From: Octopus vulgaris
Taxonomy: Eukaryota
Assembly (NCBI GenBank): GCA_951406725.2
Contig: OX597842.1
Coordinates: 19,096,001-19,160,000, forward strand
Direction: 5' to 3'
DNA: 64,000 nt
Numbering within the stretch: position 1 is the stretch's first letter; each line of letters begins with the position of its first letter. The position numbers and the translations under genes were made by a program. Below are positions 18,967 through 64,000 of the stretch, in pieces. The notes under the pieces are model-generated. The model was given only the letters and a program-made list of their open reading frames with translations, was not told the origin of the DNA and searched no databases.

Positions 18967-20959
18967 AATTGCAGCGTGGAAGGTGTTTATAAACCATTTA
19001 AGAAACACACAAAAGCTGTTCGATTCACTTCAACATTTAAGTTTAATTTGTCAAAATATTTTCGTCGCTTTAAGACCGCGACCTGTTCACTGACAAAAAT
19101 TTGTGCTGCATTTTTGTCAGTGAACAGGTCGCGGTCTTAAAGCGACGAAAATATTTTGACAAATTAAACTTAAATGTTGAAGTGAATCGAACAGCTTTTG
19201 TGTGTTTCTTAAATGGTTTATAAACACCTTCCAATATATATATAGCATGGATTTTTGTCAGTGAATAGGTCGCGGTCTTAAAGCAACGAAAATATTTTGA
19301 CAAATTAAACTTAAATGTTGAAGTGAATCGAACAAATTTTGTGTGTTTCTTAAATGGCTTATAAACACCTTCCAATATATATATATAGCATGGATTTTTG
19401 TCAGTGACCAGGTCGCGGTCTTAAAGTGAGGAAAATATTTTGACAAATTAAACTTAAATGTTGAAGTGAATCGAACGGCTTTTGTGTGTTTCTTAAATGG
19501 CTTATAAACACCTTCCACGCTGCAATCGTTTTCGTTTCAGCACACGATCTCAGATCAAATTACTTGCTATGCGAGTACATCTCCGTAATATATATATTTA
19601 TATATATATATATATAAAGGGAGAGAGAGAGAGTACTCAGCATCTTAAATCTGCTGTAATACTTACAACTTTTCATAAAATGTTGTAGTGTGAAACAATT
19701 GTACCAAATTACCGGAATCATTCTTGTTGCTTATTTTTGATTATAATCACCCCGCAAATTTTTATGGATAACACCATACAAAATTCTGGTGCATCTAAAT
19801 TAAGTACCATATTCATCTGAATCTAAATTGTTGCTGAACTTATATATATATATATATGTATGTTTGTGTGTCTGTGTTTGTCCCCCCAACATCGCTTGAC
19901 AACCGATGCTGGTGTGTTTCGTTCAAGGAACTGAAGCATGTTTATTTGCATTGTTTTTTAAATCCTTTTTGGTTGATGCTTTATGTTAAATTTTTCTGCT
20001 TTCTTTGCATTTTTGTTTTCAAAAATATGTTATATAGGAATGGGTGTTACTGTATCATAAGAAGCTTGCGGGTCTTTTCCTTTTGAATGGCAGACAATTT
20101 CTAGTTAACTTTGAAACTTCGTATACTGGTAGAATGTGTCAAAATAAAACATCATTTTTCTTGGTTTTATTGAGAAAATTCTACAGTTTGTAAGATATTT
20201 TCACTATAAAATCAAGCATTTTGGCAATTTTAACCAATCAAATACGTCCATTTGGAGTCAAAACATACCATACTGTATGAATATGTCCCTTGTTTAAGAA
20301 ACAGATTGGGTTTATTTACATTTCTGAAGAAAAAAAGATACCCTTCCCCTAGTCCTGAAATAGATTGAAATGCAATAGATCGATACCAGGGCCATAATTA
20401 TGGGTGACAATTTCATACGACACCGCAAAGGAAAATGGGATTTTTTTTTATTGGTGTCATGTGAAATTGTCACCCATAGTTATGACCCTAGTATCGATCT
20501 ATTGCATTTCAATCTATTTTAAGATTAGGGTTAGGGGGTAGGGGAAGGGTATCTTTTTTTCTTCATAAATGTAAATAAACCCAATTTGTTTCTTAAACAA
20601 GGGACATATTCATACAGTATGGTATGTTTTGACTCCAAATGGACGTATTTGATTGGTTAAAATTGCCAAAATGCTCGATTTTAAAGTGGGAATATGTTAC
20701 AAACTATAGAATTTTCTCAATAAAACCAAGAAAAAATGGCCTTGCTTTTTGCTTTTTGAGCCAAAAAATTAACTTAACTTAACTTGGCAGAATTTGAACC
20801 AAGAATGTAAATATCGATAGAATGCCTCCAAGCATATTGTCCTGCAAGCTGACCATTTACCCAGGTCACCACCTTTGTAAAAGTAAATATCAATAGTATA
20901 TTACATCGGTCATACTCTGGAGATCAGATTTCATTTTTGTTTTTATATTTTTTCAGATC

Positions 20960-21005
20960 ATGAAGTTCACATTGTTATCCATTTCTTTTCTGGTATTAAG
21001 TTTCT
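20960..21005 (+). CDS. Predicted membrane-protein gene, first coding exon (signal peptide MKFTLLSISFLVLSF)
   Basis: Acceptor TTTTTTCAG at 20956, ATG at 20960, hydrophobic run, phase-1 donor GTAAGT at 21006. Confidence 0.75.
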
Positions 21006-24578: not shown

Positions 24579-24635
24579 GTGGTGAAAGCAGAACTGATAC
24601 AAGTAGTGGTGGATCTTCTACTACTATCAGACCTG
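24579..24635 (+). CDS. Micro-exon type R (57 nt): GGESRTDTSSGGSSTTIRP
   Basis: TTTTGTTCTTATAG|...|GTAAGT, phase 1-1, Ser/Thr/Gly-rich. Confidence 0.7.
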
Positions 24636-47302: not shown

Positions 47303-48306
47303 CTGCTACTTGGATATAGGTGTTATATTCGTCGTAAAAAACTTTCCTGTCACACACTCACGCACACGCACACACACACACACACACGCACCCTCACACA
47401 CACACACACACACGCACACACACCCACTCACACACAGGCACGTTAGCTTACAATTTTATTTATATATTTGCGTGTCTATGTGTTGAAAGAGGAAGTGGTA
47501 GGCAGAGTGAAAGAATCACTCACTACAGTAAGTCAATTACTTTCATTTTATTCGTTGCCCACTGTGTGTGTGCATTTGCGTGTGCTGTAAACCAGACTAA
47601 GAAAAGCATTTGACACACACACCAGAATGTGAGTTTTCTGTAAATTTTGCTCAATTGGAGTTACAATTTTAAAAACTGGACCTGGCATGACGCGATGCAT
47701 TGTACTCTCAAAAATGCAAGGTAGATTGTAATTGAAGAAATCCTATATTGTAGATTTGTATAACTCCCAAAGGGAGGCAGATAAAATCTGCCTTTTATAA
47801 TAAGAGATATTTAATGGCTTTGCGTGGTGACTGGGGAAATGTAAAGATGTGCACGACCAGACATTTGAAGAAGTCCGGCTGTCCTGCTCCTGTCAGAGCA
47901 TAAACAGCCACCAGTCTGAGGACACCCCTGTCCCTACTGTTCATGTCCAGTATCACCAACTTAACTTGAGGGTCTACGAAGATAGGCCCCTCTGGAAAAA
48001 CACTGCAGTTTCACCTCGCATTCCTGGTTGACATGGAAATAAATAGATCTTGGATCTACCGAAAATGGCCACGACATCAACACTTTGTGACCTGAGGTCA
48101 TTGAGTAGATGGCCCTGTTTCCAAGACAACCCAGGCCTCAAGCATTTAGGTGTTACCTTTGTTCCAATTAATTTGGAAAATAAAGAATTTAATAAAATAA
48201 CTTCTTCGTTATTAAGCTGGTATTTGGAACATAAATTAACATAAAATTTTGATGGAAGGTTTTAATTTAGATCACTTTAACCCTTTTGTTACCTTATTTA
48301 TTGCAG

Positions 48307-48402
48307 ATAAAGAAACAACCAGAGATTCTGAATCTAAAAAAGTAAGAGCCATCATTGCCATCATTATCGTGCTTGTCTGCCTCTTCATATTTGTCGCTGC
48401 AC
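48307..48402 (+). CDS. Transmembrane exon (96 nt): DKETTRDSESKKVRAIIAIIIVLVCLFIFVAA
   Basis: TTATTTATTGCAG|...|GTAAGA, phase 1-1, with an 18-residue hydrophobic stretch. Read-through of the donor would give ...AARKK-stop. Confidence 0.75.
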
Positions 48403-48591
48403 GTAAGAAATGACAGAAACCTTCCAATGTGAACAAAAATTCATTCAAATTTTCTATAAAAAAAGTTTTGGATAAACAAACACCAGTTGTTAAATGGTGG
48501 TGCGAAGTTATTCAGCTTCAAAAAAAAAAAAATCTTCATTTCAAGAATATAAAAAAACAGACTGAGTTGGAATTCCTTTGAGTAATATATA

Positions 48592-49091
48592 CCGTAAATC
48601 CTTGAGTATAATCCACATTTTCCCCCCTGAAATTTAAAGGTCAAAATCCCTAATGCGTACAATATACAAGGTTAAAAATGAAAAATATTTTCTAAGCAAT
48701 GTCTCTATTTGCTGTCCGGCAATGTTTATTCAGATGCATTTTCTGATGCCGGGCACGAAAATACGTTAAGCTAAGCCTGAAAGCAATGAAGTCATAAAAG
48801 AATCATCCATAACTTGCAGTAAGCAACATTTATTAAAATAAAAGTATTCAGAACACAGAATAACATGTAACAAAAACAATTTGCAAACATATTTACATTC
48901 CCATATAACAGTTAAGAACATCACCATTATTGTATTACGCATGCATGGAAGTGTTTGTCCGACTAGGTGCTACTGGCTTAACTACGCACGACTAAAATTA
49001 GAGATTGGGTGCATATTATACACAAGGTTTAGGTTTTTCAGAGGTACAGCCCACTTAAAATCCCCTGCGTATTATACTCAAGGATTTACGG
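48592..49091. mobile_element. Non-autonomous pogo/Tc2-type DNA transposon
   Basis: TA|CCGTAAATCCTTGAGTATAAT ... ATTATACTCAAGGATTTACGG|TA, a 21-bp TIR with TA TSD. Confidence 0.8.
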
Positions 49092-49847
49092 TATGTAAAT
49101 AAATTTTTGATTTGTACAATAAAGACAATAAAACTGCATTAATACATTTTGTTATATTTTATTTATATTTAGAATGTGCATTATCCAAATCAGATTCACA
49201 AAAAAAAAAAAAAAAAGAAAAAACTGTAGGCTCAAAGTGCCATGCAGTGGGACTGAACCCGGAACCATGTGGTTGGTAAGCAAGCTACTTACCACACAGC
49301 TACTCTTGCACCACCCAACACATTTTGTTTATATTTAAAGTGTGTTTATCATCCAAATAAGATTCTCATTAAAAAATATATTTTTATTTCAAAAAACTGC
49401 ATTTATACATTTTGTGTTACTCAGTCATTTGACTGCGTCCATGCTGGAGCACCACCTTTAATTGAGCAAATTGACCCCAGGACTTATTCTTTGTATGCCC
49501 AGTACTTATTCTATCGGTCTCTTTTGTTTCCGTCTACCAAATCCACTCACAAGGCATTGGTCGGCTATAGCAGAAGACACTTGCCCAAGGTGCCACGCAG
49601 TGGGACTGAACCCGGAACCATGTGGCTGGTTAGCAAGCTACTTACCACACAGCCACTCCTGCGCCTATATATATATATTTTTTATTTATACTTAAGATGT
49701 GCATTATCCAAATCAGATTCACAAAAAAAAAAAAAAAAAAGACATTTCAAAAACTACAGGCTCAAATCTCTGATGTTCAAAGGTTTTTGTGTACGTTTGA
49801 GGCATCATATAAGCATTTGGGACTTCTCTTGTTTTTTGCTTGTTCAG

Positions 49848-49921
49848 TGTACAAATGGAAGGGGCTGTCTCCGCGGCCCCTTCTGCAACGGCGCTTGCGG
49901 TGGTTTGGCCATTGCATGTAG
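49848..49921 (+). CDS. Predicted terminal coding exon (LYKWKGLSPRPLLQRRLRWFGHCM-stop), mostly LINE-derived
   Basis: Strong acceptor CTCTTGTTTTTTGCTTGTTCAG. Phase 1 matches the TM-exon donor. Confidence 0.55.
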
Positions 49922-50204
49922 GCGTCCGGTGGGTGAACTGAGCCAGGATGTCCTCCTCCCAACTGGTAGAAACGCACGGGTGGGCAGCTGAAGACCTGGG
50001 CTACGACGATCAAGGAGGACCTCTGCGTGACCACGGGACCGCAGGTGGTCGGCCTGCGCCGATGGAACCGTGACTGGTTTGCTATCTCCAGTGAACTGGC
50101 GCAGGACCGTCGCACGTGGGCTGCCATGGTTGGAGATGCCTCGAGGGTGGTAGAAGAAGCAGACTCAACCCGCCCCGGGGTGAATGTTGCCACAAGTACA
50201 AGTA
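49854..50204 (+). mobile_element. 5'-truncated RTE LINE with 8-bp TSD AGTGTACA
   Basis: RRLRWFGH motif and AQDRRTWAAMV C-terminus, with a (CAAGTA)n tail. TSD copies at 49846-49853 and 50205-50212. Confidence 0.8.
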
Positions 50205-50340
50205 AGTGTACATGTGTGACAGAACAGTAGAATACTGAGAGAAAAATGTGGGCATAAGAGGAATTAGATGCAACGTGCAATAGAGAAGACTAACATAAAA
50301 TTAGACTGCCAAAATAACACTAAAAAGGGATTAAGAAAAA

Positions 50341-50505
50341 ATATTCTGTTGTGTCTGGGGAGAGTCATTTACTTTTTGTGCCGTCTTATGTAACACACTC
50401 ACCGGTAAAATTTCCACATTTCTTATTTTCCTAAAATTTTCGTTGCGTCTTGCAACCTTATTAGGCACAGAAAGAAAATGATCCTCCCCAGACACAACAG
50501 AATAT
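50341..50505. mobile_element. Short MITE with TIRs of about 30 bp
   Basis: ATATTCTGTTGTGTCTGGGGAGAGTCATTT ... AAATGATCCTCCCCAGACACAACAGAATAT. Partial copy at 50721. Confidence 0.65.
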
Positions 50506-51210
50506 ACTTCAACACACAAACTCACATAAAGAATCTTGCAAATCAAATCCAAAAATGAAATATAGAAAAAAAAAATGCTTCAACACACAAACTCACATAA
50601 AGAATCTTGCAAACCAAATCCAAAAATGAAATATTGAAAACAAAAAATGCTTCAACACACAAACTCACATAAAGAATCTTGCAAACCAAATCCAAAAATG
50701 AAATATAGAAAAAAAAAAATTATTCTGTTGTGTCTGGGGAGAGTCATTTTCTTTTTGTGCCTTATAATTTAACACACACACTGGTAAAATTTCCACTGAT
50801 TTCTTAGAGAGCTTCCCAACAACAACAACAACAAAACTTTCGCTACCATACTGCCACACACCAACACCATTACAGCAATAAACATGAAAAACGAACAACT
50901 TGTATCATGCATAAAAGAAAACACAGACACTAAATACTCAGACTTTATTATAAAAACGCACAATACACCACCAGACTTTACCATACCAACACACAACACA
51001 CCACCAGCACACATTCTTACAATAAAGATAAACAAAACTATATATAATGAAATCAAGGAGAAATTCCCTAACGATGTCGGGTCGCTAGGGAGAAATTTCT
51101 CCCAAAAACTATACAAAAACCTGGTGGAAACACCCATGCAAAAGCACAAGGAAGCCATCCCACCAACAACAGTAAGTAGAGGCTTTTTTTTCCTTCTGAA
51201 CCTTTAAAAC

Positions 51211-51362
51211 ATGGCAAAACTCAGAACCAGTAGCTTAAATGTGAGAGACCTTGGGTCACCTGAGGCTTCATAGCGTGGATCTAGCAGCCATTAGTGAAAC
51301 CAGGCTCTTTGACCTGCATGAACTCGCGGCCCTATTCGGCGGATACGAGATTTTCCTATCTC
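51211..51362 (+). mobile_element. L1/Tx1 ORF2 endonuclease N-terminal fragment
   Basis: MAKLRTSSLNVRDLG, then after a frameshift SVDLAAISETRL. Confidence 0.6.
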
Positions 51363-51649
51363 TGTGGATAGGATTTGTAAATAAGGAGTCTTCCTTATTA
51401 GCTCGACTAAAAGCGGTGCTCCAGCATGGCCGCAATCAAACGACTGGAAAGAGTAAAAGAGGATCAGAGGGTTCACTAGAGCTGTACTTTGCTTCTAGTG
51501 TTGAAATGGCTGCTGGGGGCCAATTTAGGATTTTGTTGCTAAAATTTCTTATAGTTTTATAATAGGCAATATATCCAAATATTTTGCTCTTAATGGTGGT
51601 GAAAGTGGAACTATTACAAGTAGTGGTGAATTTTCTACTACTATCAGAC

Positions 51650-54600
51650 CTTTCATCCTGTTACAATTGGTGACCCCTGAACATAAAACAAACATGCAAG
51701 CCAACAGACGTACACAGCAACTCACCCAGGTATTTATACACTACTGTTTGTGAATAATTTCACTGTCGTTTTGACAGCTACTATACAACCTGCGGGCCAG
51801 ACCATCTCACGCTACCAATATATTGATGTGTCTCCACTGTTTTCATAAGTTGGCTGAACCGAATACGAATGAAGACTCAACAAGCAGGAAAAAACACATT
51901 TCCCAGCAATGCAACTGTTATGTTATAGATCTCATTACAGATCCTAGCCCAGACGCCACCTATGCGACTGTCAAGGCAGAAATTCGACGCAACACGCGGT
52001 CGGAAGAAAGTAAATTCAATGAGCTGATGGCAGATGAGCAGCCAGTGGACAGGACCCCGTCACAATTTTTGCGTCGCTTGTGCAAATTAAGTGGGAACTC
52101 CGCAGACACGCCTCTGCTTTGTAAAAAGAGTAAAAGAGGATCAGAGGGTTCACTAGAGCTGTACTTTGCTTCTAGTGTTGAAATGGCTGCTGGGGGCCAA
52201 TTTAGGATTTTGTTGCTAATAACCACTGGGCCATTGCGCCTCCCTCGTGGCATTGCTACGCTATGCTTGAACGGACAGGATATGGCTCACTCCACTTGAC
52301 TACTGCAACGAGCCCCTAGGCTGCCGATTCGCCCTGAAAAAGAATGTATATACTGCGAATCCAGAAATAAAAAATATTTATGCTGTTGAATTTAATCAGA
52401 AGTCTTGACTCTTTCCTTTTGATTAATATTTTAAAGTAAAGGATGGGAGCTGCACCCATCCAGAGTTACAAACCTTTCATCCTGTTACTTACAAATCGGA
52501 GGGTCCACTAGAGCTGTACGTTGCTTCTAGTGTTGAAATGGCTGCTGGGGGCCAATTTAGGATTTTGTGGCTAAAATTTCTGTTTAATTAATTGCTTATA
52601 GTTTCATAAAAGGCAATATATCCAAATATTTTCCTTTTAATGGTGGTGAAAGTGGAACTTTTACAAGTAGTGGCAGATCTACTACTATCAGAAATTCGAC
52701 ACAACACGCGGTCGGAAGAACGTAAATTCAACGAGCGCATGGCAGATGAGCAGCCAGGGTACAGGACCCCGTCACAATTCTTGAGTCGCTTGCGCGAATT
52801 AAGCAGGAGCTCTGCAGACGCGCCTCTGCTTCGTATAATATTCTTCTCCAGGTTGCCTGCCAACCTTCAGACAATTTTGGCTACAGCCCTTGAGTCCAAC
52901 ACTGTGGACCAAATTGCCACGATGGCAGATAAAATTTTGGAATTTTCTGGCCAGCCAACGTCGCGTGGCGTGTGCGTTTGCACTGAGATCCCTTTGACAG
53001 CCTGTTTCAGCCTCTTCTGTCACATGACACTATATCAGACTAAATACAGGGTGTCCCCAAAAAATGTATACACTTGCTGCAACAGTCTGTCATGCCAAGC
53101 ATTAGAGAGGACTTTGAACAGGAAGAGTTTTATTTCCAGCAAGATGGGGCACCTCCACACTACCATCGCGATGTTAGATCCTTTCTTGATGGGATCTTGC
53201 CAAACAGGTGGATTGGACGGAGAGGTTTTGTCGAATACCCTCCACGTTCACCAGACCTCACACCACTAGACTTCTTTTTATGGGGATACCTAAAGGACAA
53301 AGTCTACGCACAGAAACATGCAACAGTCGTTCAATTGGGGGCAACCGTTGAACATGAATGTACGAATATCCCAAGGGAATTGTTCCATGATGTGTGCCAT
53401 TCCATCGCTTCGCGTTGTCAGCAGTGTCTGGAGCAGAACGGACATCAGTTTGAGAACATGCGATAACAAGACAAAAGAATGATATTTGTAAATTCTTTTA
53501 CATGTTGAAAATTATTCGAATTATAATAAACCCCAAATTTACAATTATTTAAGGTGTGTATACATTTTTTTGGGACACCCTGTAGATGTGCTGACACGAT
53601 GCATAGACGAGCTATATCGCTTGCGCGAATTAAGCGGGAACTCCGCAGGCGCGCCTCTGCTTCGTAAAATGAGTAAAAGAGAATAGGCAATATATCCAAA
53701 TATTTTGTTCTTATAGGTGGTGAAAGCAGAACTGTTACAAGTAGTGGTGGATTTTCTACTACTATCAGACCTTTCTATCAGAGAATAGGCAATATATCCA
53801 AATATTTTGCTCTTAATGGTGGTGAAAGTAGAACTATTACAAGTAGTGGTGAATTTTCTACTACTATCAGACCTTTCATCCTGTTACAATTGGTGAACCC
53901 TGAACATAAAACAAACATGCAAGCCAACAGACGTACACAGCAACTCACCCAGGTTTTTACACACTACTGTTTGTGAATCATTTCACTGTCGTATTCACAG
54001 CTACTATACAACCTGCGGGCCAGACCATCTCACGCCACCAATATATTGATGTGTCTCCACTGTTTTCATAAGTTGGCTGAACCGAATACGAATGAAGACT
54101 CAACAAGCAGGAAAAAACACATTTCCCAGCAATGCAACTGTTATGTTATAGATCTCATTACAGATCCTAGCCCAGACACCACCTATGCGACTGTCAAGGC
54201 AGAAATTCGACGCAACACGCGGTCGGAAGAAAGTAAATTCAATGAGCTGATGGCAGATGAGCAGCCAGGGGACAGGACCCCATCGCAATTCTTGCGTCGC
54301 TTGCGCAAATTAAGTGGGAACTCCGCAGACACGCCTCTGCTTTGTAAAAAGAGTAAAAGAGGATCAGAGGGTTCACTAGAGCTGTACTTTGCTTCTAGTG
54401 TTGAAATGGCTGCTGGGGGCCAATTTAGGATTTTGTTGCTAATAACCACTGGGCCATTGCGCCTCCCTCGTGGCATTGCTACGCTATGCTTGAACGGACA
54501 GGATATGGCTCACTCCACTTGAATCAGAAGTCTTGACTCTTTCCTTCGATTAATATTTTAAAGTAAAGGATGGGAGCTGCACCCATCCAGAGTTACAAAC

Positions 54601-54920
54601 CTTTCATCCTGTTACTTACAAATCGGAGGGTCCACTAGAGCTGTACGTTGCTTCTAGTGTTGAAATGGCTGCTGGGGGCCAATTTAGGATTTTGTGGCTA
54701 AAATTTCTGTTTAATTAATTGCTTATAGTTTTATAATAGGGAATATATCCAAATATTTTGCTTTTAATGGTGGTGAAAGTGGAACCATTACAAGTAGTGG
54801 TGAATTTTCTACTACTATCAGACCTTTCATCCTGTTACAATTGGTGACCCCTGAACTTAAAACGAACATGCGAGCCAACAGACGTACACAGCAACTCACC
54901 CAGGTTTTTATACACTACTG
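51650..54920 (+). mobile_element. Repeated Ty3/gypsy-type LTR-retrotransposon leader and gag fragments
   Basis: ...TGTTACA followed by PBS-like TGGTGACCCC (51668, 54842; variant at 53891). Gag-like TPSQFLRRLR, FFSRLPANLQTILA and IATMADKILE at about 51930-52120, 52690-52985 and 54150-54345. Confidence 0.7.
53047..53582 (+). mobile_element. Internally deleted mariner/maT-type (DDxD) transposon
   Basis: TA|CAGGGTGTCCCCAAAAAATGTATACAC ... GTGTATACATTTTTTTGGGACACCCTG|TA. The ORF has FQQDGAPPH and YPPRSPDLTPLDFFLWGYLKDKVY. Confidence 0.9.
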
Positions 54921-55795
54921 CCAGGAACTAAGATTGTCACAGATTCTTGGAGAGCGTATAATAGCCTACCAAACCATTTGACTGTGAACCAGTGTCACCT
55001 TTGTGGATACCAACAATGCCTCAATCCACACAAACACCGTGGAAGGGATGTGGAGTCACATGTAATCAAATTATCGGAGGATGCATGGAACGTTCCAGAA
55101 TTTTCTTCCAAAATATTTCCATCAAATTTGTAGAGATCGACAAATTCAAGTTCATGCACAGGAAATACCATCGCGGTAGTCATCGAGTCGGGCACTAGGT
55201 TCTTGGAATGGTGGAATGGGAAAGTCCGAGATGTGTTTAGTTCCTGTGGAAAACAGAAGTCCAGCAACATTGTTGCCTATTATTAGCTGCCATGTTCTGC
55301 CAGGAACTAAGATTGTCACAGATTCCTGGGGAGCGTATAATAGCCTACCAAACCATTTGACTGTGAACCAGTGTCACCTTTGTGGATCCCAACAACGCCT
55401 CAATCCACAAAAACACTGTGGAAGGGATGTGGAATCACATGAAATCAAATTTTCGGAGGATGCACGGAACGTTCCAGAATTTTCTTCCAAAATATTTCCA
55501 TGAATTTTGTAGAGATCGATGAATCCAAGTTCATGCACAGGAAATACCATCGCGGTAGGTATCTTAGGAGACTATCCGCAGGGGTCTGGGTGGCAGTGGA
55601 CCCAAACCACTTAATGTCAAAAGCTGTTTTCAGCCTGGAGACTTAATCAGCAAAAAATCTGGTGCTCCCAGATTTTCTAAGAATGGCTGGGACAAGGTAT
55701 CTTGAGCGATGTGGAGTCACGTGAAATCAAATTATCGGAGGATGCACGGAACGTTCCAGAATATTCTTCCAAAATATTTACATGAATTTTGTTTT
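54919..55795 (+). mobile_element. Tandemly rearranged Merlin (IS1595/ISXO2-like) transposase fragments
   Basis: VEIDESKFMHRKYHRG, VPVENRSPATLLPII..VLPGTKIVTDSWGAY, HLTVN and TVEGMWSHVK, with frameshifts. Confidence 0.8.
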
Positions 55796-55939
55796 ACTTC
55801 AAAAAGATTTCGTACAGAAGGAGACAGGAAAACGAATTGGTTACACAAACCTAATAACGATAACTCCATGCGAGCAATTTCACATCCTACGTACGATTCC
55901 GTAATGAAGAAAAGGATTGGAATATGAAGAATGGAAAAC

Positions 55940-56875
55940 TCTGAATAAACCTTTCAAAGAAAAATTTGAAAATATGCCTTGGGGATACTTCGACAACAAC
56001 AAATGCTACATGGAGAGAGACGTCTCTCTAAAAATATTCAGATCCACACTCATGACCCAGGACATCATTGAATGAACATTTGTCTCAACAGTATGGGAAT
56101 TAAGGCAGATTCTCCATAGCAAATGGCAGGACAGGATCGCTAACACAGAGGTTTTGGACCGTGTCAACATCATCTGTGAGAGGCGTCTTCAGTGGCTAGG
56201 CCATGTCAGCCGAATGGATGCAGGACGGATTGCAAAGGACCTACTGTACGGACAGCTAGCGGAAAGCTCCAGAACAATGGGACGGCCCAAACTGCGCTTC
56301 AAGGATATTTGCAAGAAGGACCTAAAGCTATGCCAGAGCAACACCCAAACATGGGAATCCACCGCTGCCAACAGAGGCACCTGGCGACACAGTGTCAAAC
56401 TAAAGAGAACCAGGCGAAAGGAGCAGCAACCACAGCTCTCGTCCCCTTTCACTTGCACCAGATGTGGTAGGGACTGCCACTCGATGATTGGTCTGCACAG
56501 CCACACCAGGAAGTGCAGATAGACCCACCACCTTTTCTGAGCTACACCATTGTCTCTTGAGATAGACGGATGCCGGATGCCAAAGATGGGAATTACTAAC
56601 ACAAAAAAAACCTAAAAGAAATCTTCAGGTATTAAGGGGCATTCCTAACTCTGGCAAATCAATGATAGCAAGAAGTATCGCAGATATGTTTACACACGTA
56701 TCAACCATTCAAGGGACAACTAGTTCCCCCATTCCAGAACCTAGTAAATGTTGAAATTGGTTTAATAGAAGAACCAAACTTTACACTGGAAACACTACAA
56801 ACTCTTAAAAAACTAGCTGAAGGCGTTGACGCTGAAGTCGCAATTAAATTCAAACGAGACCAAATTGTCCACAGG
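55940..56875 (+). pseudogene. Endogenous parvovirus/densovirus NS1 fragment, copy 1 (split by an RTE insertion)
   Basis: After removing the RTE it reads TFVSTVWELLTQKKPKRNLQVLRGIPNSGKS (Walker A)...GLIEE (Walker B)...KKLAEG. One stop and one frameshift. Confidence 0.8.
56103..56585 (+). mobile_element. 5'-truncated RTE (BovB-like) LINE with 10-bp TSD ATGGGAATTA
   Basis: RRLQWLGHVSRM..LLYGQL..GRPKLRFKD and a terminal CxxC...HxxxC finger. TSD copies at 56093-56102 and 56586-56595. Confidence 0.85.
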
Positions 56876-56905
56876 TTCTTCAATGTGGTGCCGAAACACT
56901 GGAAT

Positions 56906-57570
56906 ATGTAGAGATCAACGAATCCAAGTTCATGCACAGGAAATACCATCGCGGTAGTCATCGAGAAGGGCACTAGGTTCTTGGAATGGTGGAATGGGAA
57001 AGTCCGAGATGTGTTTAGTTCCTGTGGAAAACAGAAGTCCAGCAACATTGTTGCCTATTATTAGCTGCCATGTTCTGCCAGGAACTAAGATTGTCACAGA
57101 TTCCTGGGGAGCGTATAATAGCCTACCAAACCATTTGACTGTGAACCAGTGTCACCTTTGTGGATCCCAACAGTGCCTCAATCCATAAAAACACAGTGGA
57201 AGGGATGTGGAGTCACGGGAAATCAAATTTTCGGAGGATGCATGGAACGTTCCAGAATTTTCTTCCAAAATATTTACATGAATTTTGCAGAGATCGACAA
57301 ATTCAAGTTCATGCACAGGAAATACCATCGCGGTAGGTATCTTAGGAGACTATCCGCAGGGGTTTGGGTGGCAGCGGACCCAAACCACTTAATGTCAAAA
57401 GCTGTTTTGAGCCTGGGGACTCAATCAGCAAAAAATCTGGTGCTCCCAGATTTTCTAAGAATGGCTGGGACAAGGTATCTTGAGGGATGTGAAGTCACGT
57501 GAAACCAAATTATCGGAGGATGCACGGAACATTCCAGAATTTTCTTCCAAAATATTTACATGAACTTTGT
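56906..57570 (+). mobile_element. Second block of Merlin transposase fragments
   Basis: Near-duplicate of 55128-55795. Confidence 0.8.
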
Positions 57571-57714
57571 TTTACTTCAAAAAGATTTCGTACAGAAGGA
57601 GACAGGAAAGCGCATTGGTTACACAAACCAAATAACGATAACTTCATGCGGGCAATTTCACATCCTACGTACGATTCGGTAATGAAGAAAAGGATTGGAA
57701 TGTGAAGAATCGAA

Positions 57715-57941
57715 AACTGAAGTTGATAGATCACAAGATAGTGGTGTAGGAGAAAGTCAAACTATGGGTGATCCACATGTAGGACCAGCACCTGGTGGGT
57801 CTGTGGCTATGGCAACAGGAGATCAACCACCAGACATAGGTGATATAAATCCAATTGTATCTAAAAAATTTTCACGGACATTTGTGCATTACGTAAACTG
57901 TAGCGATCTTCCTACCCTTAAAGCATATTATAAAAAACACA
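57715..57941 (+). pseudogene. Possible parvoviral capsid (VP) N-terminal fragment
   Basis: A Gly/Pro-rich stretch followed by KKFSRTFVHYV, resembling the first jelly-roll strand of invertebrate parvovirus VP. It lies next to the NS1 fragments. Recognised by eye only. Confidence 0.4.
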
Positions 57942-57978
57942 ATGGGGATACCTAAAGGACAAAGTCTACGCACAGAAA

Positions 57979-58713
57979 CTGAATAAGAAACTCCCAAAGT
58001 GTAATCTACTTGTATTAAGGGGTTTGCCAAATACTGGCAAATCTAGGGTAGCTAGAAGTATTGCCGAGATGTTCACTCATGTCAGCACGATTCAGGGGAC
58101 AAGGAGTTTCCCATTTCAAAACTTGATTAATGTCGAAATAGGTTTAATCGAAGAACCGAATTTCACTTTAGAAACACTTCAGACATTCAAAAAGCTTGCT
58201 GAAGGGACTGACACTGAAGTTTCTGTAAAATTCAAGCCAGACCAGGTTGTCCACAGAACACCATTGATCATTACTTCAAACAACAAATTCGACAGCAACG
58301 CACCTTTACACGAAAGATATGCTTTCATCACGAGATACACAGAATATCTTTTCCAAAAAACATCTCCTTTCCTTCAATATGTTAAGAAAACAATTAATCC
58401 TATTATATGGAATGTATTATTTTATGAACATTGTTTTTCTTCTTTAATTAATGACGATGGTTCCTCATCGGATGACAATTTATGTCACATTCTAGAAGAA
58501 TATGAAAAGCTCACCAATCGAGACGCCGACAAAGAAAACAAGCGACCAGGTGGATTTCGGACTCTGTCTGGTTCTGGAAGCGGGTCAACCGTTAGAGTCT
58601 TCTCCGAAACAGACGAAGAAGAACAAGTCCCAGAAAAAAGGAAAAAGTTCAGAAAGCTGAGATACACACCAAATTACGAGGCTGATAGTGAACTATCAGA
58701 TTCCGAACTGTAA
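57979..58713 (+). CDS. Endogenous parvovirus/densovirus NS1 SF3 helicase domain, copy 2 (open frame, 5'-truncated)
   Basis: KKLPKCNLLVLRGLPNTGKS (Walker A), FPFQN, GLIEE (Walker B), VSVKFK (B'), RTPLIITSN (motif C), and an acidic/basic tail with KRKKFRK. Confidence 0.88.
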   Translation: MNKKLPKCNLLVLRGLPNTGKSRVARSIAEMFTHVSTIQGTRSFPFQNLINVEIGLIEEPNFTLETLQTFKKLAEGTDTEVSVKFKPDQVVHRTPLIITSNNKFDSNAPLHERYAFITRYTEYLFQKTSPFLQYVKKTINPIIWNVLFYEHCFSSLINDDGSSSDDNLCHILEEYEKLTNRDADKENKRPGGFRTLSGSGSGSTVRVFSETDEEEQVPEKRKKFRKLRYTPNYEADSELSDSEL

Positions 58714-59170
58714 TTCTTTTGCATTTATCATTTATTTCTATTTTTCATTATCAATTATATAATTTGTAATCTGGAAATGTATTCAGAACTCTTCAAATTA
58801 ATTATATTTTTCTTGAAAATGTATTTGTATTTTAAATCTTTAAATAAAAATGATAAAAAATTTTTTTATTTAAATTTAAATAAAAATTCAAAAAAAAAAA
58901 AAAAGAAGCGTGCCAAAAGGGGGAGACCAACCGGCCGAGAGGTCAGTTGGTCCCCTCCCCCCCAATTTTTTTTTATTGAAGATGATCGCACTGCTTCAAA
59001 GAAGTCAACTGGTCGGGAGGGAGGTAGATTACGTCATATATATTGATATTCATTAAATTTTTTTTTTCATTACTACATTTTACGAAAAACCCAGAATTTA
59101 ATAATTGTTAAACATTTTCCTCTTTTCAGGTGAGCCAAAAATTTATGCAGTTAACCTAAATTTATTAATA

Positions 59171-60168
59171 ATGGCTAAAGGAAAGATGTTGACAGATGGT
59201 GAAATTGGGTGAAATTGTTAAATTACTTGCTGCAAAGAAGTCTACATTAGAAATTTCAAAAATTTTGAAACGAGATCATCGAACGTTTCGTCATTGACGG
59301 CAAAGATGGAAGAAAAAAGCACAAAAGTGTCAGACCAAAGGTGACTTCACCACGAGATTTGAGAAAAATCAAGAGGAGTGTGCTAGCAAACCCACACAGC
59401 ACAAGCAAAGCTATTTTCAACCATGCAGGAGTGTCTGACATCTCTAAAAGGACCCGAAATCGGATTTTGAAACAAATAGCGGACCAGAGAACACCAACAA
59501 AATGTCCTCCTTTGAGTGATATCAACTGTCAGATGCGACTAGCATGGGCCACTAAATATTTGAAAACCAATTTTCAAAATGTTCTCTGGACTGACGAGGC
59601 TAGAGCAACCCTCGACGGTCCCGACGGTTGGACCAAGTGATGGCTTCTTAAAGGCAATAGCCCACGCTTGCGATTCAGACGTCAACAGGGAGGAGGGATT
59701 TGGGCTGGGATTATTGGAAGTGAGATTGTTGGTCCTTTTCTTGTCCCTGAAGGTGTCAAAATGAATTCTGTGAACTACTGCGAGTTTTCGGAAGAGAATT
59801 TATTGCCCTGGTTGAATTCACAAAATGATGCTGTCAACCAGAATCTCATTATTCAACAAGACGATGCCCCAAGCCATGCTTCTCGGTTCACAAAAGCTTG
59901 GCTTTCAGACCAGGGGATCTCTGGTGAACGTCTGATGGACTGGCCACCTCAGAGCCCGGATTTGAATCCGATAGAGAACCTCTGGTCGATTCTGAAGAGG
60001 AAGGTTTACGAAAACGGCCATCAATTCAACAGTAAAAAAGACATTTGGGAGAGGATCAAGGAGGTATCTTCTGAAATCACACCTCAACAAGTGCATAAAT
60101 TAACATCCTCTGTTGATAGGAGGCTGATGGATTTGATTAAGAATGGAGGAAAGCGTATAAAGGGTTAA
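59171..60168 (+). pseudogene. Tc1-family (DDE) transposase, frameshifted
   Basis: MAKGK start, VLWTDEARATLDGPDGW, QQDDAPSH and WPPQSPDLNPIENLW, with internal stops and frameshifts. Confidence 0.9.
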
Positions 60169-60589
60169 ATTGTTTTATAAATTTGTATTGTTTTGTTAAT
60201 TGTTATTTGAGCAATAACTGTTGTTTTCTTGTAATATGTTATCAATATATGGTACTATTATCATAATGACACAATGTTTCAAATTATATTATGTTTAAAA
60301 ATGTTATTTATTTCGAATAAATGAGTCTTGCAAACTCTTTTGGCCCATATTTACACTTTTACTTGTTTCAGTCAGTTGACTGCGGCCATGCTGGAGCACC
60401 GCCTTTTAATCGAGCAACTCGACTCCCGGGACTTATCCTTTTGTAAGCCCAGTACTTATTCTATCGGTCTCTTTTTCCGAACCGCTAAGTAACGGGGACA
60501 TAAACACACCAGCATCGGTTGTCAAGCAATGCTAGGGGGACAAACACAGACACACACACGCATATATATATATATATATATATACATAC

Positions 60590-60645
<56 letters not shown>

Positions 60646-60952
60646 GACGGGCTTCTTTCAGTTTCCGTCTACCAAATCCACTCACAAGGCTTTGGTTGGC
60701 CCGAGGCTATAGTAGAAGACATTTGCCCAAGATGCCACGCAGTGGGATTGAACCCGGAACCATGTGGTTGGTAAGCAAACTACTTACCACACAGCCACTT
60801 CCTGAACTTTTTTAAAAATCCATATTTTCCCCCCAGAATATGATTATTTGGTTTCCGTCTCTAGGAATTTACTTTATATATTTGCATATCGAACAATGAG
60901 TAACATAGTTATTTATATTGGAAAATATTGAAGCATAAATTTATCAATATGG

Positions 60953-61334
60953 AATGGAAGCACTCTGTCGGTTATGACGACGAGGGTTCCGGTTGATCCG
61001 AATCAACGGAACAGCCTGCTCGTGAAATTAACGTGTAAGTGGCTGAGCACTCCACAGACACGCGTACCCTTAACGTAGTTCTCGGGGATATTCAGCGTGA
61101 CACAGAGTGTGACAAGGCCGGCCCTTTGAAATACAGGTACAACAGAAACAGGAAGAGTGAGAGAAAGTTGTGGTGAAAGAGTACAGCAGGGATCACCACC
61201 ATCCCTGCCGGAGCCTCGTGGGGCTTTAGGTGTTTTCGCTCAATAAACACTCACAACGCCCGGTCTGGGAATCGAAACCGCAATCCTATGACCACGAGTC
61301 CGCTGCCCTAACCACTGGGCCATTGCGCCTCCAC
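60953..61334 (-). mobile_element. tRNA-derived SINE (another family)
   Basis: The minus-strand head is GTGGAGGCGCAATGGCCCAGTGGTTAGG (A box) ... GGTTTCGATTCCC (B box). Confidence 0.75.
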
Positions 61335-61496
61335 AAAATTTATCAATATATACAATTTGCAAACACTTTTGACCCCATTTTTAAATGTTTTTCTCATTAT
61401 TATTTCTGGTGTCAGAGATGTTCTTTGATCTCATTTCTGAAATTAGCGATTTTTCTGGATGAATTTCTGCTTTTGAATCAAAACTGCAGGGAAAAA

Positions 61497-62880
61497 CTTG
61501 TTTCTGATAAAAATCAAGATAAATTCCAAAGGGGCAATTCCTAAAACATCTATTTCTGAGACTGATTTCTGGTGGCAAAATTTAAAGGAATGACCTCCAA
61601 CCAAAGTGAATTGAAATTTGGAATTCAGACACAAACCTTGCAATGGGATCAAACCTTACGTCAACCAATACAAGTCATGTAAGAAGCACTAGAATCGGCC
61701 AGATGCTTAAGAATTCTATATTTTCTTGTTTTTCTTAGAGGAGGAAAAATTAAGAAATTTCTTTTGATAATGGTCAACCTTGTTATAGACCTTCACTGAT
61801 TATTATAGTTTTGTAGTGACGCTATCCCAATAGCGCGCGCGCTAACGCCACTTACAAAAATGGAATATAGATTATTAAGAGACAAAGAAATGTTAATATG
61901 AAGTATAAAACTTTGAAATGCTTATTTCAGAGTGTCCAAAGTTTGAAGAAAAAGCAGTCAAGACGGTTGTAGAATCTGTAATTGATTTCTATAAATTTTA
62001 CCTTCACCTGAGATATATTTGTGTGAATGACTGAGAACAGGTTCCATTCTTAATTTCCAATTCATATTTCAGTGATTTTCTTTAATTTCTTTCTTTTCTT
62101 AGAGGAGGAAAAAAAAAAATCAAGAAATTATTTTTGATAATGGTCAACCCGATTATTATCATGATAACAACACTGATTATTATAGTTAATATATTAACCC
62201 TGTTAATACCAAATATTTGAACCTGGGTCTGCACCCCTAAGCAAATTTTATTCCTGGGCATTGACAGCAATCAAGATAAAGTCACCAGCTGGTTTCGCTA
62301 ACTACCTACAGAAATACCGTCATAGTTACGAAGTCAAACTTTGTAATAAGATCAAAACATATGTCAACCAGTAAAAGTCGTGTAAGAAGCACCAGAATCT
62401 ATCGGATGTATTAGAATTCTATATTTTCTTTTATTTCTTGCTTTTCTTAGAGGAGGAAAAATCAAGAAATTATTTTTGATAATGGTCAACATTGTTATAG
62501 ACCATCACTGATTATTATAGTTTTTAGCCCCCCCCCCCCCCAAAGGGTTGCCAGCAACTTGTTTCTGATAAAAATCAAGATAAATTCCAAAGGGGCAATT
62601 CCTAAAACATCTATTTCTGAGACTGATTTCTGGTGGCAAAATTTAAAGGAACAACCTCCAACCAAAGTGAATTGAAATTTGGAATTCAGACACAAACCTT
62701 GCAATGGGATCAAACCTTACGTCAACCAATACAAGTCATGTAAGAAGCACTAGAATCGGTCAGATGTTTAAGAATTCTATATTTTCTATAATTTCTTGTT
62801 TTTCTTAGAGGAGGAAAAATTAAGAAATTTCTTCTGATAATGGTCAACCTTGTTGTAGACCTTCACTGATTATTGTAGTT
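61497..62880. repeat. Direct duplication of about 315 bp (61497-61810 / 62557-62880) with partial internal copies
   Basis: Near-identical blocks that yield duplicate shadow ORFs (MIPLQGLCLNSKF...). Confidence 0.8.
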
Positions 62881-63496
62881 GGTGTTTACACAAATTATCT
62901 TCATTTTTTATGTATCATCATCATCATTGGTTTAACATCGTCTTTTCTAAAACGCTGCTCCATCTTACTCTTGTCCGACCAATGCAAGAATCGAAAGACG
63001 GACGTTAAAATGCTATGGTCGATGATGATGGTGGTTTCCACTGAAATACACCGTCTTTCAGTTAATTTTGGAAATAATGAACAATTTAGAAAAAATAACC
63101 GTTTTTCTGAAGCTGGTATTTGGTGGTGGTGGGGGAGAAACACAACGAAACATATTTAAATAGGCTTCAACACAGTTTCCGTTTTCCAAATCCACTCACA
63201 AAGCCTGTAAACAAGTTGTCATTTTGATTCAGTGTCCCCCATGCATACAATGATGTATTACACATCCCAGCAGAAAGATCGCCCCCCGCCCCCGGATGTG
63301 GGGAGAAACACAGACACACATATTTACACAATGGGCTTCAACATAGTTTCCGTTTTCCAAATTCATTCACAGAAATGCTTAAAAACTTGTGTCAGGGGGA
63401 GGGGAACACACACGCCACAGAAACCAGACCCACGAGCCTGGCAAGGCTTGAAAGGCACTTCTTTATGAAAAACTTTGTGACAACAAGTGAGCGAAG

Positions 63497-63790
63497 AAAA
63501 ATTTTTTGGAGAGATTTGAAACACTTCTCCAAATGTAAGAAAAATTTTTGGAGAGATTTGAAACACTTCTCCAAATGTAAGAAACATTTTTGGAGAGATT
63601 TGAAACACTTCTCCAAATGTAAGAAAAATTTTTGGAGAGATTTGAAACACTTCTCCAAATGTAAGAAAAATTTTTGGAGAGATTTGAAACACTTCTCCAA
63701 ATGTAAGAAAAATTTTTGGAGAGATTTGAAACACTTCTCCAAATGTAAGAAAAATTTTTGGAGAGATTTGAAACACTTCTCCAAATGTAA
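63497..63790. repeat. 42-bp minisatellite x7
   Basis: The unit AAAAATTTTTGGAGAGATTTGAAACACTTCTCCAAATGTAAG repeats head to tail with no spacers and an internal hairpin. Confidence 0.95.
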
Positions 63791-64000
63791 TAATAATAAT
63801 ATTTGTTATCATAGTTATCAGAATCTATCGGATGTATACGAATCGTTTTTCTTAAACGATAATAAAAAAGTTCAGAAGATGATACTCAAAAGAATTCTTA
63901 CCAAATAAACGCAAAACCAGAAGCTCCTTGAATTCATTAAAGCAGAAAAAGCCACGGTTATCTACAGGGTGGGGAAGCAAAATTTACAATGAACGTTAAG

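Follow-up and report, generated by a model that had tools for sequence, protein, structure and literature searches.

The window studied here comprises 64,000 nucleotides of Octopus vulgaris (C29:19096001-19160000 of the 2.8-Gb genome) and carries, between positions 49854 and 60345, a dense mosaic of transposable element (TE) and parvoviral fragments that all code on the plus strand. We consider with moderate confidence that this mosaic is a compact uni-strand source locus of PIWI-interacting RNAs (piRNAs), that is, a trap that would be transcribed on the minus strand. Since a Pfam profile search named few of the broken frames in the window (only 4 out of 19 were assigned to TE or viral families), we have drawn a tblastn library of 32 intact TE and viral frames (33 including the capsid protein VP), partly labelled by Pfam, from this genome; it is blind to families that it does not contain.

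The raw matches in the mosaic number 27, lie within 51260-60165 and are found on the plus strand only; upon merging, 15 out of 15 matches in 49854-60345, representing 8 families, have this orientation, exactly as the original prediction had claimed. A relaxed search (E≤1) evidenced no credible minus-strand coding piece in the mosaic, as minus matches were limited to the inverted repeat of the mariner itself and to two others at E 0.085 and 0.33; the opposite-strand pieces noted inside it are two 24-nt heads of short interspersed nuclear elements (SINEs), at 52220 and 54443. The prediction had also proposed a comparison of the bias with the genome background, which we have carried out on 10 random 40-kb and 40 random 10-kb stretches using the same library. 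Coding matches cover 54% of the mosaic bases against 0.7–14% in the 40-kb stretches, in which the strand majority reaches 5/7 at most, and the 10-kb stretches have 3% cover, 11 plus and 11 minus elements, and no more than 3 elements each. The mosaic is also almost devoid of microsatellites, as had been noticed, with 1.9 per 10 kb compared to 21 in positions 1-49853 and 8–103 in the random 40-kb stretches, and the matches to long interspersed nuclear elements (LINEs) elsewhere in the window are, again in agreement, on the minus strand (3/3). Local duplicates that repeat an earlier part account for 3,178 of the 10,492 mosaic bases (30%). Once these are collapsed nine independent sources remain (RTE no. 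1, L1/Tx1, gypsy, mariner, Merlin, L1-ORF1, parvovirus, RTE no. 2 and Tc1), for which the chance of sharing one strand is 2×0.5^9, or about 0.004, as simple arithmetic for a single locus. The co-orientation in the mosaic is thus confirmed, and beyond the 10.5-kb core the plus bias extends to around 65–67 kb in window coordinates.

The same architecture recurs elsewhere in the genome. A paralogous mosaic located 10 Mb away (C29:9.2167-9.2263 Mb, about 87% identical) has 5 out of 5 merged matches co-oriented and holds some 4.8 kb of its own L1 pieces, absent from the window and all in the common orientation, while the parvovirus, RTE no. 2 and Tc1 are missing from it and its mariner site is empty. 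We have also read the surroundings of the 8 other NS1 loci found in the genome: five lie in one-strand domains of 25–50 kb as far as covered, with NS1 on the majority strand in all of them (Table 1). Three of these domains (C9, C12 and C15) supplied frames to the library, and C14 and C19a supplied none. Around the NS1 loci, 57 of 71 adjacent pairs of elements from different families have a common strand, compared to 21 of 37 in the background (Fisher p=0.013). An excess of A over T on the TE-sense strand is observed in 7/7 biased domains (+0.075 to +0.123), against values of −0.029 to +0.037 in 9 of the 10 random stretches, and SINEs run along the bias at C12 (8/8) and C15 (2/2). One of the ten other copies of the mosaic Tc1 family lies, co-oriented, in a biased NS1 domain, a coincidence noticed post hoc. 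As the bias survives the collapse of duplicates and recurs both in a paralog with different content and at 5/8 NS1 loci, the architectural argument is stronger than could have been known from the window, and a bias explained purely by local duplication, the outcome named beforehand as fatal to the idea, is not what we find.

In respect to its build history, the mosaic is layered. Both RTEs have target-site duplications and the mariner has TA on both sides; two RTEs, a mariner that postdates the duplication of the locus and a young Tc1 represent separate insertions. The direction of the differences between window and paralog is settled for the mariner alone. At many other junctions the matches to the two sources overlap by 1–7 nt, and VP is connected to NS1 by a mariner piece of 38 nt. 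This pattern fits microhomology-mediated deletion or template switching, although chance alone can make BLAST ends overlap by a few bases. The locus lies in a segmentally duplicated region.

The mosaic was further compared with 24 public sequencing runs, available as unstranded contigs whose RNA origin is not on record. Sampled words of 50711-59050 are present at 51–82% in 18 of the 24 runs (5 studies, two organism labels), and the contigs of all four runs compared over 47780-58800 (4 studies, two organism labels) bridge the gypsy-mariner or the NS1-RTE-NS1-Merlin junctions. The mosaic is therefore real and common to a second organism, and these contigs together with the paralog rule out an assembly artefact. 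The contig sets of the four compared runs amount to 55–95 million letters, against a genome of 2,800 Mb, a small size that hints at transcriptomes and thus at a mosaic that is likely transcribed. The contigs cover the mosaic colinearly, and no GT-AG or CT-AC joint was found inside it among 15 joints listed out of 48. Differences of the A>G and T>C types are balanced (e.g. 7 vs 5 and 7 vs 9) and gave no strand. In three of the four runs contig depth decreases towards the right (in X1, 3.6 at 47834-48137 compared to 155–229 in the first mosaic contigs), but as contig depth cannot rank gene parts this gradient was not counted as a sign of a 3′ end on the left; likewise, the fact that 58084-58800 is uncovered in three runs carries no weight.

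The mosaic appears to sit within a gene, a setting that the original prediction had overlooked. From splice-bounded frames we infer a plus-strand gene for a single-pass membrane protein (20957-62860) with short repeated exons, and the mosaic would occupy the intron that follows its transmembrane exon. The fragments would thus be sense to the host gene. Introns usually show an antisense insertion bias, of which this arrangement is the reverse. The mosaic moreover contains five copies of the host exon at 24579 with its upstream intron (83–96% identity), to which a minus-strand transcript would be antisense too. In the mechanism that we favour, a long minus-strand precursor, convergent with the plus-strand host gene, would be cut into antisense piRNAs, and selection would keep those insertions that are antisense to the precursor. 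Compaction by local duplication and by junctions with short overlaps is seen in the mosaic itself, and deletion would contribute to it. The predicted targets would be active LINEs, DNA transposons, gypsy elements and the parvovirus and, through the five exon copies, the host gene itself.

A number of observations weigh against this reading. The merged match counts include local duplicates, and the background pairs are few (n=37). Three of the 8 other NS1 loci are unbiased (C19b 4/7, C5 4/8 and C20 3/4, the latter with NS1 on the minority strand), and among the four NS1 loci independent of the library, found later by Pfam, only 2 are biased. One of the 10 random stretches shares the A skew (0.106). 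The SINE head and tail matches flanking the mosaic (49.2–67.8 kb) are 9/9 on the minus strand, including two SINEs inside Tc1, and the SINEs at C19a (4/4), C9 (4/5) and C14 also fail to follow the bias. The AATAAA motif occurs 8 times on each strand of the mosaic, with no depletion on the presumed precursor strand. In addition, no minus-strand promoter was identified for the mosaic, and the only gene found across the locus is on the plus strand, with a good plus acceptor at 49847.

These last points lead to the alternative that the mosaic is transcribed on the plus strand, as host intron, alternative 3′ end or read-through, and that its co-orientation arose from reverse transcriptase template switching among sense RNAs or from templated repair rather than from antisense selection. 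The interspersion of host intron and exon copies in sense would agree with this, as would the 49847 acceptor, the short junction overlaps with the bridging mariner piece, and an NS1 frame on C9 that is flanked by ORF1-like LINE and endonuclease frames. However, the mariner and both RTEs inserted separately and are co-oriented nonetheless, a single cDNA could not span domains of 25–50 kb that comprise as many as 11 families, and the contigs of runs X1 and X5 cross the acceptor unbroken; altogether we hold this explanation to be unlikely. Somewhat more doubtful is an orientation-filtered graveyard, in which a long non-coding RNA or intron on the minus strand would accept only insertions antisense to it, as sense ones bring polyadenylation and splice signals, and no small RNA is made. 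It would explain both strand bias and A skew with no need for piRNAs and relies on the well-established antisense bias of introns, but leaves the 54% packing, the loss of microsatellites, the parvoviral link and a near-total bias that includes DNA transposons unexplained, and the equal frequency of AATAAA on either strand is not what it would predict.

Convergent transcription of the host gene and a minus-strand non-coding RNA might instead yield double-stranded RNA, and thereby small interfering RNAs, ADAR editing or dual-strand piRNAs. The host gene does span the locus on the plus strand, and transposon-derived RNAs of 22 nt have been reported from a snail (PMC6128900); nevertheless, a dual-strand output would not select a single orientation and the contig differences that editing would skew are balanced, which makes this quite improbable. 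Least credible of all, and in our view scarcely tenable, is chance combined with local duplication of a few insertions: the region is segmentally duplicated and local repeats make up 30% of the mosaic, but nine sources, a paralog with different co-oriented content and five other biased NS1 domains stand against it, and nothing similar was seen in the 10 random 40-kb and 40 random 10-kb stretches.

The piRNA reading can be compared with known systems. Cluster 38 of endogenous viral elements (EVEs) in Aedes aegypti spans 143 kb and has a demonstrated antisense transcript and phased piRNAs, such EVE clusters being mostly intergenic (PMC7161354). The octopus mosaic resembles it in the interleaving of TE and viral fragments on one coding strand, from which an antisense precursor is predicted, and this Aedes-type feature is found in the mosaic and at 5/8 of the other NS1 loci. 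Unlike cluster 38, the mosaic is only about 10 kb long, involves a DNA parvovirus, lies in the putative intron of a sense gene and contains host exon copies. The prediction of a candidate uni-strand cluster, which is thus borne out in part, also invoked flamenco, and here the dense one-strand architecture stands while the strict likeness does not: flamenco and flam-like clusters share a strand-biased transposon content predictable from genome sequence, but they extend over hundreds of kb with a bias confined to Gypsy elements (PMC10643416; PMC11400887). The mosaic has neither a size above 100 kb nor a Gypsy-driven bias, gypsy being one of nine sources and LINEs and DNA transposons sharing the orientation, so that, strictly speaking, it falls outside the flam-like type.

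In the psyllid Diaphorina citri, a 621-bp densovirus NS EVE within a piRNA cluster gives rise to antisense 1U piRNAs, although the antiviral ping-pong response did not depend on them (PMC7527727). The mosaic likewise holds parvoviral NS fragments in a host genome, the antisense 1U piRNAs being the psyllid feature; as the psyllid case concerns an insect and a single EVE, it calls for caution in any antiviral interpretation of the octopus locus. Clusters in the molluscs Lymnaea and Crassostrea are enriched in young gypsy and DNA transposons and are expressed in soma and germline (PMC6128900), a similar content within the same phylum; those clusters were, however, set by small-RNA mapping, and the portion of that source at hand reports no strand-biased layout, viral inserts or cephalopods. 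Cephalopods have active LINEs and somatic Piwi expression (PMC9115989), and piRNA loci have been analysed in O. bimaculoides in a study whose cluster coordinates may bear on the novelty of the present loci (PMC12479628). None of the titles and abstracts searched, a coverage that leaves out most subscription papers, describes octopus uni-strand clusters or parvoviral inserts.

Storage of viral fragments in uni-strand clusters is on record for flies, mosquitoes and a psyllid; if our reading is correct, this trap architecture would extend to cephalopods. Seven candidate loci are now mapped (the mosaic, its paralog and five NS1 domains) and an octopus parvovirus lineage is recorded. A far-reaching version, which we put forward as a speculation with rather low odds, is that compact one-strand piRNA traps occur throughout the octopus genome and archive LINEs, DNA transposons and a possibly segmented parvovirus as heritable antiviral memory, and that the present trap, antisense in the intron of a fast-evolving membrane-protein gene, would through its five exon copies also silence the host gene and its relatives.

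Table 1. Features of the mosaic, of the surrounding gene (window positions) and of the one-strand NS1 domains (chromosome positions). LTR, long terminal repeat; PBS, primer binding site; TIR, terminal inverted repeat; SF3, superfamily 3.
Feature	Position	Strand	Remarks
Putative host signal-peptide exon	20957..21005	+	splice-bounded frame; hydrophobic N-terminus
Putative host 57-nt Ser/Thr-rich exon	24579..24635	+	source of five mosaic copies
Putative host transmembrane exon	48307..48402	+	
RTE LINE 3′ fragment no. 1	49854..50214	+	target-site duplication
L1/Tx1-type LINE piece	50821..51366	+	sequence upstream of endonuclease and endonuclease start
Copy of host intron and 57-nt exon	51397..51651	+	intron with SINE tail
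Gypsy LTR end, PBS, gag pieces, LTR	51645..53046	+	rearranged with host pieces
Further 57-nt exon copies	52643, 53717, 53819, 54770	+	
Mariner, internally deleted	53047..53586	+	both TIRs, TA either side; site empty in paralog
Local duplicate of host-exon/gypsy block	53784..54920	+	98% and 95%
Merlin transposase pieces	54919..55793	+	L1-ORF1 piece at 55568-55703
Parvoviral NS1 fragment A	55802..56875	+	split by RTE no. 2
RTE no. 2, 5′-truncated, in NS1	56102..56585	+	10-nt target-site duplication
Local duplicate of Merlin/L1/NS1 block	56903..57718	+	95%
Parvoviral capsid (VP1-like) fragment, putative	57743..57934	+	
Mariner piece, 38 nt	57942..57979	+	100% identical to 53280-53317; joins VP to NS1
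Parvoviral NS1 fragment B	57980..58776	+	carries SF3 helicase and C-terminal end; 75% identity with fragment A
Tc1 element	59058..61376	+	97% to ten further copies; no left TIR; two minus-strand SINEs break the 3′ end
Candidate last exons, duplicated	61629..62860	+	basic stop-transfer, Tyr-rich tail; putative borders
Start of second Tc1 family element	63828..64000	+	also in paralog; continues about 1.3 kb past window end
C9 domain	9.50-9.53 Mb		18/21 one strand
C12 domain	68.516-68.566 Mb		16/16 one strand, 11 families
C14 domain	64.321-64.349 Mb		17/18 one strand
C15 domain	74.468-74.498 Mb		11/12 one strand
C19a domain	C19:23.964-23.990 Mb		6/6 one strand

The individual TE assignments of the original prediction largely hold. 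Two RTE fragments are present, no. 1 being supported by a co-oriented copy (89%) that encodes the end of the RTE reverse transcriptase and no. 2 by tblastn and its target-site duplication, and the plus-strand Tc1 matches PF01498 and PF13358. Three gypsy PBS sites do exist (51663, 53886 and 54837), and there are Merlin pieces on the plus strand, although the Merlin match to PF12762 (E 2.5e-5) falls under the cut-off; in both families, however, the repeated pieces that had been counted as several fragments are local duplicates. L1-ORF1 pieces within the Merlin blocks (55568-55703 and 57346-57481) had been overlooked. The second Tc1 element extends the plus bias, and directly before it lies a 42-bp tandem repeat (63494-63797, 7 copies at 98%) with several open frames. 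By reading of the sequence, the plus strand directly beyond the window end carries a pogo-like element, also present in the paralog, and an RTE-like 3′ piece.

Regarding the parvoviral pieces, both predicted NS1 fragments were recovered by tblastn, fragment B matching PF01057 with E 1.4e-13 (50.9 bits, cut-off 20). Its five database relatives all carry PF01057, and the closest named ones are from Octopus vulgaris (89%) and O. bimaculoides (84%). At the C19b locus, a Pfam NS1 match occurs without a tblastn NS1 match. The possible VP survives in part: 55802-56096 and 57631-57696 were rejected as VP, since tblastn shows NS1 there, and only the piece at about 57743-57934 is VP-like, with 41% identity over 64 amino acids (E 1.7e-5) to a 542-residue open reading frame (ORF) of the same genome that has the PF08398 PLA2 domain and matches solved VP1 capsids; this match is weak but specific to a capsid. 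Both in the window (57743-58776) and at C12:68,541,076-68,542,215, NS1 follows a VP piece that has the same orientation. After the NS1 stop, at 58.7–59.05 kb, an AT-rich tract with polyadenylation signals and an A run is followed by a GC-rich palindrome, and this may be a viral end; a 61-nt piece in it has an 80% match to a capsid array on C4. The latter (C4:168,362,700-168,376,400) is built of units of about 3 kb in tandem and inverted arrangement; every unit has a VP1-like frame (PLA2), long palindromes separate the units, and no NS1 match occurs within these limits; it is perhaps a capsid-only concatemer from a segmented parvovirus. At C9:9,513,559-9,516,998, a 332-residue NS1 frame has a Cys/His-rich frame similar to LINE ORF1 on one side and an endonuclease frame on the other, and the three share the plus strand, an arrangement that suggests a LINE-linked capture of NS1. 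Inside the biased C14 domain, a 428-residue plus-strand frame with ankyrin-like repeats, so labelled by reading (C14:64,331,869-64,333,152), could represent a further captured piece of host or viral origin. Parvovirus-related sequences have reportedly been surveyed broadly across animals, and molluscs may be among those covered.

On the side of the host gene, tandem units of about 3 kb occupy 25–46 kb, a partial copy in inverted orientation precedes the window by around 16 kb, and C29:9.22-9.24 Mb holds a paralog. To the right of the mosaic no minus-strand gene was recognised among the non-repeat ORFs, a weak test for short exons. The stretch at 61851-62075 was dropped as a promoter, since it proved to be part of a mini-exon array, which occurs in at least 28 places on C29 (18–30 Mb) and in one on C27, representing a clustered unnamed gene family. 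Finally, positions 1-2127 of the window and three other stretches belong to an array of C2H2 zinc-finger genes with an 84-bp period.

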